DNA from: Escherichia coli | Lineage (GTDB): Bacteria > Pseudomonadota > Gammaproteobacteria > Enterobacterales > Enterobacteriaceae | Assembly (NCBI RefSeq): GCF_009931435.1 | Contig: NZ_CP043414.1 | Strand: one strand, 5' to 3' | Length of the DNA stretch: 64,000 nt | In this document: in pieces, positions 9,688-61,649 of the stretch | How the letters are laid out: each line of letters begins with the position of its first letter | Position numbering within the stretch: the first letter of the stretch is position 1 | Notes under the pieces: model-generated | The model's database searches: none | What the model was told of the DNA's origin: nothing | Seen by the model: the letters and a program-made list of their open reading frames with translations, nothing else | Program-made: the position numbers and the translations under genes

Positions 9688-9739
9688 CCGAATTTCGATT
9701 AACGCTCAGTCTCTGACTGAGAAAACTGGAAGCATGCTA

Positions 9740-14563: not shown

Positions 14564-14862
14564 TCCCCTTACAACATGGACTGATCCTCGCGGCAATCTT
14601 ATTCGTTCTTGGCTTAACCGGTCTGGTTATCCGTCGCAATCTGCTCTTTATGCTGATTGGTCTGGAAATCATGATTAACGCCTCTGCGCTGGCCTTTGTG
14701 GTCGCCGGAAGCTACTGGGGTCAGACCGACGGTCAGGTGATGTACATTCTCGCCATCAGCCTCGCGGCGGCGGAAGCGAGTATCGGCCTTGCGCTGCTGC
14801 TGCAACTTCACCGTCGTCGCCAGAACCTGAACATCGATTCAGTAAGTGAGATGCGCGGATGA
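14560..14862 (+). CDS. nuoK: NADH:quinone oxidoreductase subunit K (membrane)
   Basis: 100 aa hydrophobic protein; overlaps nuoJ stop and nuoL start. Confidence 0.92.
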
Positions 14863-16700
14863 ACATGCTTGCCTTAACCATTATTTTGCCATTGATTGGC
14901 TTCGTCTTGCTGGCGTTCTCCCGTGGGCGCTGGTCTGAAAATGTCTCGGCGATCGTGGGCGTAGGCTCTGTGGGCCTGGCGGCGCTGGTAACCGCCTTTA
15001 TCGGCGTTGACTTCTTCGCTAACGGCGAGCAGGCATACAGCCAGCCGCTGTGGACATGGATGTCGGTAGGCGACTTTAACATCGGTTTCAATCTGGTGCT
15101 GGACGGCCTGTCGCTGACCATGCTCTCGGTGGTCACCGGTGTCGGTTTCCTTATTCACATGTACGCCTCCTGGTATATGCGTGGTGAAGAGGGCTACTCT
15201 CGCTTCTTCGCCTACACCAACCTGTTCATCGCCAGCATGGTGGTTCTGGTTCTTGCCGACAACCTGCTGCTGATGTACCTCGGCTGGGAAGGCGTGGGCC
15301 TGTGCTCCTATCTGTTGATCGGTTTCTATTACACCGATCCGAAGAATGGCGCAGCGGCAATGAAAGCGTTTGTCGTGACCCGTGTGGGTGACGTGTTCCT
15401 CGCTTTCGCGCTGTTCATTCTCTACAACGAACTGGGCACCCTGAACTTCCGTGAAATGGTGGAACTGGCACCCGCGCACTTTGCTGACGGCAATAACATG
15501 CTGATGTGGGCGACGCTGATGCTGCTGGGCGGTGCGGTTGGTAAATCTGCGCAGCTACCGTTGCAGACATGGCTTGCCGACGCGATGGCTGGCCCGACAC
15601 CTGTCTCCGCGCTGATCCACGCCGCAACGATGGTAACCGCGGGTGTCTACCTGATCGCCCGTACCCACGGCCTGTTCCTGATGACACCAGAAGTTCTGCA
15701 TCTGGTGGGTATTGTCGGGGCAGTTACGCTGCTGCTGGCCGGTTTTGCCGCGCTGGTACAGACCGACATCAAACGTGTTCTCGCTTACTCCACCATGAGC
15801 CAGATTGGCTACATGTTCCTTGCGCTTGGCGTACAGGCATGGGATGCGGCGATTTTCCACTTGATGACCCACGCGTTCTTTAAAGCGCTGCTGTTCCTGG
15901 CATCCGGTTCCGTCATTCTGGCCTGCCATCACGAACAGAACATCTTCAAGATGGGCGGTCTGCGTAAATCTATTCCGCTGGTTTATCTCTGCTTCCTGGT
16001 GGGTGGTGCAGCACTGTCGGCACTGCCGCTGGTTACTGCGGGCTTCTTCAGTAAGGATGAGATCCTCGCTGGTGCGATGGCGAATGGTCATATCAATCTG
16101 ATGGTGGCAGGTCTGGTCGGTGCGTTTATGACCTCTCTCTACACCTTCCGTATGATTTTCATCGTCTTCCACGGGAAAGAACAAATTCACGCTCACGCCG
16201 TGAAAGGGATTACTCACAGCCTGCCGCTGATTGTGCTGCTGATCCTTTCCACCTTCGTTGGCGCACTGATTGTACCGCCGCTGCAGGGCGTGCTTCCGCA
16301 AACTACGGAACTGGCGCACGGCAGCATGTTGACCCTGGAAATTACCTCTGGCGTGGTCGCGGTGGTTGGTATTCTGCTGGCAGCCTGGCTGTGGCTGGGT
16401 AAACGTACTCTGGTGACCTCCATCGCCAACAGTGCGCCGGGCCGTCTGCTGGGTACCTGGTGGTACAACGCCTGGGGCTTTGACTGGCTGTACGACAAAG
16501 TGTTCGTCAAGCCGTTCCTGGGTATTGCCTGGTTGCTGAAACGCGATCCGCTGAACTCAATGATGAACATCCCGGCTGTCCTTTCCCGCTTTGCAGGTAA
16601 AGGTCTGCTGTTAAGCGAGAACGGTTATCTGCGCTGGTATGTGGCATCCATGAGCATCGGTGCGGTCGTGGTGCTGGCACTGTTGATGGTACTGCGTTGA
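14859..16700 (+). CDS. nuoL: NADH:quinone oxidoreductase subunit L (antiporter-like)
   Basis: 613 aa Mrp-antiporter-like membrane subunit. Confidence 0.93.
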
Positions 16701-16738
16701 GTTAAGGATTGTGGGCTTGCCCCTGGGCATATAAGAAC

Positions 16739-16776
16739 GTAGGTCGGATAAGCCGCCTTCGCGGCGCATCCGACAC
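16739..16776. repeat. REP (repetitive extragenic palindrome) element in the nuoL-nuoM spacer
   Basis: gtaggtcggataagccgccttcgcggcgcatccgacac matches the enterobacterial REP consensus (imperfect palindrome). Confidence 0.6.
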
Positions 16777-16865
16777 TACAACCACAATCCGAAGAGAATT
16801 TTCTGTCGTGAGAATTCGTTGAAAATCCGGTCCTGACGGGACTTTTACAAGGAATAAAGATCGCC

Positions 16866-18395
16866 ATGTTACTACCCTGGCTAATATTAATTCCCTTTAT
16901 CGGCGGCTTCCTGTGCTGGCAGACCGAACGCTTTGGCGTCAAGGTGCCGCGCTGGATCGCGCTGATCACCATGGGATTGACGCTGGCGCTGTCGCTGCAA
17001 CTGTGGTTGCAGGGCGGTTATTCACTGACGCAATCCGCCGGAATTCCGCAGTGGCAGTCTGAATTCGACATGCCGTGGATCCCGCGTTTTGGTATCTCTA
17101 TCCATCTCGCCATTGACGGGCTATCGCTGCTGATGGTCGTGCTGACCGGTCTGCTCGGTGTGCTGGCGGTACTCTGTTCGTGGAAAGAGATCGAAAAATA
17201 TCAGGGCTTCTTCCACCTCAACCTGATGTGGATCCTGGGCGGCGTTATCGGCGTGTTCCTTGCCATCGACATGTTCCTGTTCTTCTTCTTCTGGGAAATG
17301 ATGCTGGTGCCGATGTACTTCCTGATCGCACTGTGGGGGCATAAAGCCTCTGACGGTAAAACGCGTATCACGGCGGCAACCAAGTTCTTCATTTACACCC
17401 AGGCGAGTGGTCTGGTGATGCTGATCGCCATCCTGGCGCTGGTTTTTGTTCACTACAATGCGACTGGCGTCTGGACCTTCAACTATGAAGAGCTGCTGAA
17501 TACGCCAATGTCTAACGGCGTGGAATATTTGCTGATGCTGGGCTTCTTCATCGCATTTGCGGTGAAAATGCCGGTGGTTCCGCTGCATGGCTGGCTGCCG
17601 GATGCGCACTCCCAGGCTCCGACCGCCGGTTCCGTTGACCTCGCGGGGATCTTGCTGAAAACTGCCGCTTACGGTTTGCTGCGTTTCTCCCTGCCGCTGT
17701 TCCCGAACGCGTCGGCAGAGTTTGCACCAATCGCTATGTGGCTGGGTGTTATCGGCATCTTCTACGGTGCGTGGATGGCCTTCGCCCAGACCGATATCAA
17801 ACGTCTGATCGCCTACACCTCGGTTTCCCACATGGGCTTCGTGCTGATTGCTATCTACACCGGCAGCCAGTTAGCCTACCAGGGCGCGGTCATTCAGATG
17901 ATTGCTCACGGCTTGTCGGCGGCGGGTCTGTTTATTCTCTGCGGTCAGCTTTATGAGCGTATCCATACCCGCGATATGCGCATGATGGGCGGTCTGTGGA
18001 GCAAAATGAAATGGCTGCCAGCACTGTCACTGTTCTTTGCGGTGGCAACGCTTGGGATGCCGGGCACCGGTAACTTCGTCGGCGAATTTATGATTCTGTT
18101 CGGCAGCTTCCAGGTTGTCCCGGTGATTACCGTTATCTCTACCTTTGGGCTGGTCTTTGCATCTGTTTATTCGCTGGCGATGTTGCATCGCGCTTACTTC
18201 GGTAAAGCGAAAAGCCAGATTGCCAGCCAGGAACTGCCAGGGATGTCGCTGCGTGAGCTGTTTATGATCCTGTTGCTGGTGGTGCTGCTGGTACTGCTGG
18301 GCTTCTATCCGCAGCCGATTCTGGATACCTCGCACTCCGCGATTGGCAATATCCAGCAGTGGTTTGTTAATTCCGTTACTACTACAAGGCCGTAA
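16866..18395 (+). CDS. nuoM: NADH:quinone oxidoreductase subunit M (antiporter-like)
   Basis: 509 aa membrane protein. Confidence 0.93.
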   Translation: MLLPWLILIPFIGGFLCWQTERFGVKVPRWIALITMGLTLALSLQLWLQGGYSLTQSAGIPQWQSEFDMPWIPRFGISIHLAIDGLSLLMVVLTGLLGVLAVLCSWKEIEKYQGFFHLNLMWILGGVIGVFLAIDMFLFFFFWEMMLVPMYFLIALWGHKASDGKTRITAATKFFIYTQASGLVMLIAILALVFVHYNATGVWTFNYEELLNTPMSNGVEYLLMLGFFIAFAVKMPVVPLHGWLPDAHSQAPTAGSVDLAGILLKTAAYGLLRFSLPLFPNASAEFAPIAMWLGVIGIFYGAWMAFAQTDIKRLIAYTSVSHMGFVLIAIYTGSQLAYQGAVIQMIAHGLSAAGLFILCGQLYERIHTRDMRMMGGLWSKMKWLPALSLFFAVATLGMPGTGNFVGEFMILFGSFQVVPVITVISTFGLVFASVYSLAMLHRAYFGKAKSQIASQELPGMSLRELFMILLLVVLLVLLGFYPQPILDTSHSAIGNIQQWFVNSVTTTRP

Positions 18396-60070: not shown

Positions 60071-60108
60071 GTAGGCCAGATAAGACGCGTAAGCGTCGCA
60101 TCTGGCAC
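60071..60108. repeat. REP element between convergent inaA and yfaE
   Basis: gtaggccagataagacgcgtaagcgtcgcatctggcac, a REP-consensus-like imperfect palindrome. Confidence 0.6.
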
Positions 60109-61528: not shown

Positions 61529-61640
61529 GCCGGATAAGGCATTTTACGCCGCATCCTGTGCCTGATGCGACGCTGGCGCGTCTTATCAGGCCTACAAATT
61601 CGAGCCGTAGGCCGGATAAGGCATTTACGCCGCATCCGGC
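61529..61640. repeat. BIME: cluster of three REP elements in the nrdA-nrdB spacer
   Basis: Three REP-consensus copies in alternating orientation (gccggataaggcattttacgccgcatcc; gcctgatgcgacgctggcgcgtcttatcaggcctac; gtaggccggataaggcatttacgccgcatccggc). Confidence 0.7.
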
Positions 61641-61649
61641 ATCTCAATA

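Follow-up and report, generated by a model that had tools for sequence, protein, structure and literature searches.

The stretch of DNA analyzed here, referred to as the window, comprises 64,000 nucleotides of Escherichia coli sequence (RefSeq assembly GCF_009931435.1, contig NZ_CP043414.1) and includes the nuo operon genes. According to the list of open reading frames (ORFs) and the sequence, nuoL ends at position 16700 and the ATG of nuoM begins at 16866. The spacer between them therefore occupies exactly 16701–16865, and its length of 165 bp agrees with the initial annotation. The names nuoL and nuoM were taken from the RefSeq annotation of E. coli genomes that are 100% identical; a 365-nt query spanning the junction matched 5423 of 5426 complete E. 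coli genomes, in which nuoL and nuoM are the genes annotated under the match. The remaining nuo junctions in the window measure +15, +93, +2, −4, +46, −4, +14, +11, −4, −4, and +6 nt, which makes the nuoL–nuoM gap the largest in the operon, as no other exceeds +93 nt. The features discussed below are listed with the evidence for each in parentheses.

14859–16700, plus strand: nuoL coding sequence, 613 aa, stop included (ORF list, RefSeq annotation of identical genomes)
16701–16865, plus strand: nuoL–nuoM intercistronic spacer, 165 bp, window allele (sequence and ORF list)
16706–16714, plus strand: left arm of the outer helix, GGATTGTGG (9-bp perfect inverted repeat with 16782–16790)
16717–16732, plus strand: TTGCCCCTGGGCATAT, probable relic of a second, inverted REP (comparison with Citrobacter)
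16739–16776, plus strand: REP element, 38 nt, with its GTAG head at the 5' end of the sense strand (palindrome, motif, alignment, fold, copy number)
16782–16790, plus strand: right arm of the outer helix, CCACAATCC (pairs with 16706–16714; polymorphic in E. coli)
16791–16828, plus strand: A/U-rich conserved linker, including GAATTTT and the 15-mer AATTCGTTGAAAATC at 16813–16827 (cross-genus alignments)
16829–16843, plus strand: hairpin 2, GGTCCT-GAC-GGGACT, just 5' of the nuoM ribosome-binding site (fold, covariation)
16849–16854, plus strand: nuoM Shine-Dalgarno sequence AAGGAA (invariant in all core-type spacers)
16866–18395, plus strand: nuoM coding sequence, 509 aa, stop included (ORF list, RefSeq annotation of identical genomes)

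Folded as RNA, the complete 165-bp spacer reaches −61.2 kcal/mol (z = −4.3). Two candidate coding features were considered and set aside. A minus-strand ORF of 115 aa at 16625–16972, which spans the spacer, was rejected because two natural alleles described below disrupt it: the 163-bp allele shifts its frame by 2 nt, and the 230-bp allele removes it. A GTG...TGA mini-ORF in the 3' core was dropped as a translational relay because the nuoL stop is 90 nt away from its E. coli copy, which also lacks a ribosome-binding site.

The palindrome that the initial annotation had called REP-like proved to be a genuine REP by its fold, its alignment with family members, and its copy number. The element at 16739–16776 reads GTAGGTCGGATAAGCCGCCTTCGCGGCGCATCCGACAC, with palindrome arms at 16743–16756 and 16761–16774, and has the size and structure of the family, namely an imperfect palindrome of ~35–40 nt forming a stable stem-loop. 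Its RNA hairpin folds at −25.9 kcal/mol (z = −6.6), a value equaled by none of 200 shuffled sequences. The REP consensus is present throughout, comprising the GTAG head, GGYCNGATAAG ... GCATCNGRC, and a covarying lower stem. The exact head motif GTAGGYCKGATAAG lies in the spacer and occurs five times in the window, compared with 0.73 occurrences expected by chance. Furthermore, the spacer REP can be aligned in register with three other REPs of the window (at 60071, 61607, and, on the minus strand, 61595), yielding 25 invariant columns and a lower stem that covaries among the four copies as TCGG/CCGA, CCGG/CCGG, CCAG/CTGG, and CCTG/CAGG. A 44-nt REP query identified a median of 34 places per E. 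coli genome among the matches listed (E up to 10), consistent with a multi-copy family, and the element is extragenic, lying between the nuoL stop and the nuoM start. The spacer palindrome is thus an ordinary REP, placed in the only long gap between genes of the nuo operon.

The REPs used as family references for this comparison lie elsewhere in the window. One is a single REP at 60071–60108; the others form a BIME of two inverted REPs at 61560–61642, which read GCCTGATGCG...CTTATCAGGCCTAC and GTAGGCCGGATAAGG...CATCCGGCA. Searched against Rfam, the window spacer scored 23 bits (E ~0.09) with naRNA4, a REP-derived family, a weak match below the gathering score of 59.5. The K-12 RefSeq record shows no REP annotation at nuoL–nuoM; this is uninformative, since the same record shows no REP feature at malE–malF either.

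The REP is enclosed by an outer helix, and the module formed by the two (16706–16790) folds at −44.3 kcal/mol (z = −6.5). In the majority 163-bp allele of E. coli, the right outer arm is CCCCAGTCC and the helix is weaker. The outer helix is retained in Klebsiella, Citrobacter, and Superficieibacter, where it encloses different REP cargo, and one compensatory change (T:A to C:G) occurs in Superficieibacter. Conservation of the helix across genera, together with this compensatory change, hints that some structure here may be under selection.

Between the left outer arm and the REP lies TTGCCCCTGGGCATAT, which matches both ends of a left-hand REP with the middle missing. The corresponding site in Citrobacter sp. 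R56 and C. amalonaticus is occupied by a complete left-hand inverted REP, TGCCCGGTGGCGCTAACGCTCACCGGGCCTAC, and the two copies there fold together as one long hairpin. Folded alone, the E. coli mini-hairpin at 16717–16732 does no better than chance (z = 0.1). The comparison points to a BIME/REPIN in decay: the E. coli element was probably an inverted REP pair until the middle of its left copy was lost.

Three forms of the spacer circulate in E. coli. The 165-bp window allele, with its perfect outer helix, is found in 323 of 5426 complete genomes, and the 163-bp allele, which is that of K-12, ST131, and ATCC 25922, in approximately 4375. The remaining form is an unrelated 230-bp allele carried by 725 of the 5426 genomes (13%), including O157:H7 and E. 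coli C, and represented by three of the loci compared. It replaces approximately 16693–16939 of the window, lacks both the REP and the 15-mer, and contains an ERIC-like palindrome of ~127 bp, to which a median of four places per E. coli genome are related.

The 230-bp spacer matches the one in Salmonella enterica subsp. arizonae with 100% identity. The tract identical to Salmonella is at most 312 bp long; it starts 8 nt before the end of nuoL, covers the spacer, and extends 74 nt into nuoM, where it includes four Salmonella-type synonymous sites. The flanking DNA is ordinary E. coli DNA, 96–100% identical to the window and only ~87% identical to Salmonella. The tract therefore looks like a very short patch exchanged between species, which would have put an ERIC-like spacer in place of the REP-bearing one. 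Citrobacter freundii has this spacer type as well, so the transfer was probably into E. coli. Given this natural replacement in 13% of E. coli, the REP part of the spacer is, on the genomic comparison, to be regarded as dispensable.

Among ten sampled REP-type alleles of E. coli, variation is concentrated in the upper stem of the REP, at one lower-stem position, and in the right outer arm, and the 3' core is nearly invariant, with two singleton changes only. Three of the four REP stem variants in this sample still pair as G:U in the sense RNA, and the fourth breaks its pair. Retention of G:U pairing would weakly fit selection on an RNA hairpin, within the bounds of a small sample in which one variant breaks the pair.

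To place the junction in a wider context, 80 species genomes of the Enterobacterales were compared. In none of them do nuoL and nuoM overlap, and the gap between them measures anywhere from 24 to 289 nt. It is shortest (24–41 nt) in Pluralibacter, Trabulsiella, and Hafnia, whose gaps hold little beyond a ribosome-binding region. Enterobacter, Atlantibacter, and C. werkmanii have a 76-nt core alone in the gap, and Klebsiella, Citrobacter, and Superficieibacter combine this core with the outer helix around species-specific REPs. In Kosakonia, Siccibacter, Shimwellia, Raoultella, and C. youngae, the core is split at hairpin 2 by an ERIC-like element; the same element is found without the core in Pantoea, Erwinia, and Mixta. 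This variety of repeats indicates that the junction gathers different mobile repeats and that the REP is not orthologously conserved.

Several observations concern the ERIC-like elements themselves. In many genera, represented by nine loci, the ~127-bp palindrome inserted at hairpin 2 has GGAC on either side, a possible target duplication. Internally shortened versions occur in three species, as palindrome-driven deletion would predict. In four Serratia loci, the nuoL–nuoM gap holds what we read as a canonical ERIC, GAATCCCCAGGAGCTTAC...AAGTAAGTGACTGGGGTGAG; an Rfam search of the Serratia spacer gave a weak match only, to the Vibrio antisense RNA family V_AS5.

The conserved 3' part of the spacer is the 76-nt core (~16790–16865 of the window), in which GAATTTT, the 15-mer, hairpin 2, and AAGGAA follow one another up to the nuoM ATG. 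The 15-mer AATTCGTTGAAAATC is unchanged across 11 species from seven genera. Pairwise identity in the core is 80% vs 67–72% at third codon positions of nuoL and nuoM; ten loci served for the core comparison. Hairpin 2, with a stem of 6–7 bp, folds at −6.3 kcal/mol, which alone is not significant. Because MAFFT mis-registered this hairpin, its arms were taken from fixed sequence anchors before pairs were counted. Across genera, 95.9% of the cells are paired, both sides change in three of seven pairs, and the register scores better than every slid register. No Rfam family matches the core, as judged from the window spacer; the other alleles searched gave weak repeat-derived matches only. The linker also holds two GAAUU motifs (GA|AUU at 16796–16800 and 16812–16816), which would fit the RNase E preference quoted in the literature, RN|WUU. 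Taken together, conservation and covariation suggest that the 76-nt core probably matters for nuoM expression.

Transcription signals were sought in the spacer itself and in published RNA maps of K-12. A scan of the spacer found neither a terminator-like nor a sigma-70-like promoter consensus. The REP is followed by ACTACAACCACAATCC, with no T-run or U-tract, and hence does not constitute an intrinsic terminator. An internal promoter candidate, TTGAAA-18 nt-TTTTAC, was rejected because its −10 hexamer lacks the required A2 and T6. The K-12 spacer, which is the 163-bp allele, corresponds to NC_000913.3 2393042–2393204. The curated K-12 Term-seq table of Adams et al. (2021), covering three conditions, lists nuo 3' ends at 2391429 (nuoN), 2394829 (nuoL), and 2399938 (nuoG), none in the spacer and none labeled nuoM, and the Rho-termination table of the same study has no entry for nuoL, nuoM, or nuoN. 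Dar and Sorek (2018) included nuo among 390 operons tested for differential decay; the nuo genes appear in their list of analyzed operons only, and none is found among the differentially decaying pairs, the protective 3' structures, or the RNase E sites. In the RNase E table of Clarke et al. (2014), nuoL has two sites and nuoN, nuoG, and nuoC are also represented; no entry carries the label nuoM.

The Term-seq end at 2394829 lies 217 nt into nuoL, at ~15076 of the window. The coordinates of Clarke et al. (2014) appear to use an older K-12 numbering, and if a shift of ~1978 nt applies, this end would be ~8 nt from an RNase E site. The two together suggest processing early in nuoL, not in the spacer.

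The initial annotation had been right about the structure, a REP in a long intercistronic gap. Its functional part, according to which the REP acts as an mRNA stability or partial termination element and may adjust the stoichiometry of the distal subunits, finds no support in the published tables, and the element is replaced in 13% of genomes. A stabilizer of the malEFG type would be expected to produce discrete 3' ends at the REP, with the segment before it more stable or abundant than the one after; the published K-12 tables list no 3' end in the spacer and do not include nuo among the differentially decaying operons. Partial termination fares no better, with no terminator consensus and no Rho-termination region for nuoL, nuoM, or nuoN. 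Tuning of NuoM and NuoN is likewise unsupported; among related genera, the junction varies from a 24-nt gap to 289 nt of other repeats. That annotation had also named uniform transcript coverage with no 3' ends or processing sites at the REP as evidence against its proposal; so far as published data go, the curated K-12 tables list none in the spacer. These maps are curated, thresholded lists for K-12, whose outer helix is weaker than that of the 165-bp window allele. They argue against a strong effect of the REP and not against any effect, leaving room for low-abundance REP-stabilized intermediates or for an effect in other growth conditions.

REPs, which the RAYT (TnpA-REP) transposase mobilizes, are repeats of a selfish or near-neutral kind. 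On the reading that we consider probable, the REP is left over from an inverted pair and rides as a near-neutral passenger in the one nuo junction that tolerates insertions, the conserved 3' core is what likely matters for nuoM, and there is no termination and no measurable effect on subunit ratios. The anatomy, membership of the REP family, the pattern of conservation, the natural replacement of the spacer, and the lack of mapped 3' ends in the published tables are observations; we infer that the REP is neutral, that a second REP left a relic, and that the 76-nt core has a role. Under this reading, the 5' 90 nt of the spacer (16701–16790) would be a repeat module, in which one intact REP is nested in an older conserved helix and represents the survivor of a BIME/REPIN pair whose left copy lost its middle. 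The junction would tolerate insertions because nuoM has its own ribosome-binding site and no translational coupling to nuoL; ribosomes would load independently at the 3' 76 nt, that is, the A/U-rich stretch, the 15-mer, hairpin 2, and the Shine-Dalgarno sequence. In the nuoA–N mRNA, the REP is predicted to fold into a stable hairpin that would at most slow 3'-to-5' exonucleases on upstream decay intermediates. It would neither terminate transcription nor measurably set the NuoL:NuoM:NuoN ratio, and any effect on mRNA stability is probably small. Complex I contains one copy each of NuoL, NuoM, and NuoN, which leaves no obvious reason to express them unequally.

The main rival to the passenger reading is segmental mRNA processing, which we regard as unlikely. 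Here RNase E would cut the linker at its GA|AUU motifs, the REP and outer helix would guard the 3' end of the nuoA–L segment, hairpin 2 would guard the 5' end of nuoMN, and decay of the two halves would be uncoupled. The layout fits both models of Dar and Sorek (2018): in one, a structure protects the 3' end, and in the other, RNase E cleaves ahead of a 5' hairpin. The REP hairpin has high stability, conservation of the linker and hairpin 2 exceeds that of synonymous sites, and hairpin 2 covaries. However, nuo lies outside the differentially decaying operons of that study, the K-12 spacer has no Term-seq 3' end, and the RNase E table has no nuoM entry although nuoN, nuoL, nuoG, and nuoC are all present. 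In addition, lineages such as O157:H7 have fixed the 230-bp allele, in which REP and 15-mer are both missing.

A more ambitious proposal, which we consider speculative and rather improbable, combines two ideas. The junction would be a conserved landing pad, with two old hairpins of which the first captures REPs and the second ERIC-like elements, and with whole spacers moving between species, as the 312-bp patch identical to Salmonella in 13% of E. coli shows; the 76-nt core would be an undescribed cis-acting RNA element, sister to the nuoG motif, that controls nuoM translation or RNase E processing.

The other alternatives are less likely still than segmental processing. As a partial attenuator, the REP would pause RNA polymerase or expose untranslated RNA to Rho, bringing transcription of nuoM and nuoN below that of nuoA–L. 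Some BIMEs reportedly attenuate transcription, and the spacer does provide 165 nt of untranslated RNA between the ORFs and a strong hairpin as a possible pause site. We nonetheless hold attenuation to be very unlikely, as the spacer offers no U-tract and no terminator-like match, the published K-12 tables show neither a Rho-termination region for nuoL, nuoM, or nuoN nor a 3' end in the spacer, only one intact REP is present rather than a full BIME, and complex I is generally understood to need equimolar NuoL, NuoM, and NuoN.

Translational down-regulation of nuoL, through ribosome stalling at the stop codon by nearby REP structure and subsequent tmRNA tagging, is highly improbable. REP-mediated stalling is said to require the REP itself within ~15 nt of the stop codon. 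The outer helix does begin just 5 nt past the stop (16706 vs 16700), but the REP itself starts 38 nt beyond the final base of the nuoL stop codon; the helix has just 9 bp, encloses a large loop, and pairs imperfectly in the majority allele. A role at the DNA level, in binding gyrase, IHF, or DNA polymerase I or in organizing the nucleoid, as reported for some BIME classes, is likewise highly improbable here: membership of the REP family and the weak match to naRNA4, a nucleoid-associated RNA family, favor it, but the REP is single with no BIME pair, the match reaches 23 bits vs a gathering score of 59.5, and the REP is replaced in 13% of strains and absent from many genera.

Intercistronic REPs correspond to the family's original description; the finding is therefore already known in kind and ordinary here. 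The REP in the nuoL–nuoM gap adds little by itself and gives no sign of complex I regulation. Full-text literature searches for the nuoL–nuoM gap, for a REP in nuo, and for ERIC in nuo returned nothing relevant, and one mention of "nuoLMN" was a GO-term artefact only. Subscription literature aside, three results may be new, namely the spacer patch in which 13% of E. coli are identical to Salmonella, the junction as a trap for repeats of several families, and the conserved core with a covarying hairpin that lies outside Rfam. The three natural E. coli alleles (strong helix with REP, weaker helix with REP, and the Salmonella-type ERIC-like spacer) amount to a natural experiment on repeats in a long equimolar operon. 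The nuoM core and the nuoG motif, for their part, point to small conserved structures in what few real gaps the nuo mRNA has.

The nuoG motif is the nearest counterpart within the operon. This curated RNA motif (RF01748) lies in the nuoF–nuoG gap at 9690–9732 of the window on the plus strand (50.3 bits). Like hairpin 2, it places a short conserved hairpin just 5' of the ribosome-binding site in a nuo intercistronic gap; its layout consists of GAATTTCGATTAAC, the hairpin, an A-rich stretch, and the ribosome-binding site, and GAATTTCGATTAAC loosely resembles GAATTCGTTGAAAATC upstream of hairpin 2. At E values up to 10, RF01748 finds no match in 16400–17200 of the window, so hairpin 2 does not belong to the nuoG motif and the likeness is one of layout only.

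The ERIC/IRU elements, imperfect palindromes of ~127 bp in enterobacteria, have a counterpart at this junction, where the 230-bp allele and many genera carry an ERIC-like palindrome. They form a family distinct from the window REP, inserted at hairpin 2 and not in the REP module. The closest parallels for the REP itself are those of malE–malF and hisJ–hisQ, which share the GTAG head, a covarying lower stem, a GC-rich upper stem, multiple copies, and a position between genes of one operon. At malE–malF, the REPs stabilize the upstream segment and lead to unequal expression. In contrast, nuoL–nuoM has no reported 3' end or differential decay, and the nuo subunits are needed in equal amounts.

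Finally, the BIME or REPIN is defined by two or more inverted REPs, and with one intact REP the window element falls outside this definition. The orthologous site of Citrobacter sp. R56 and C. amalonaticus falls within it, being made of two inverted REPs, of which E. coli keeps the right copy and what look like the two ends of the left.
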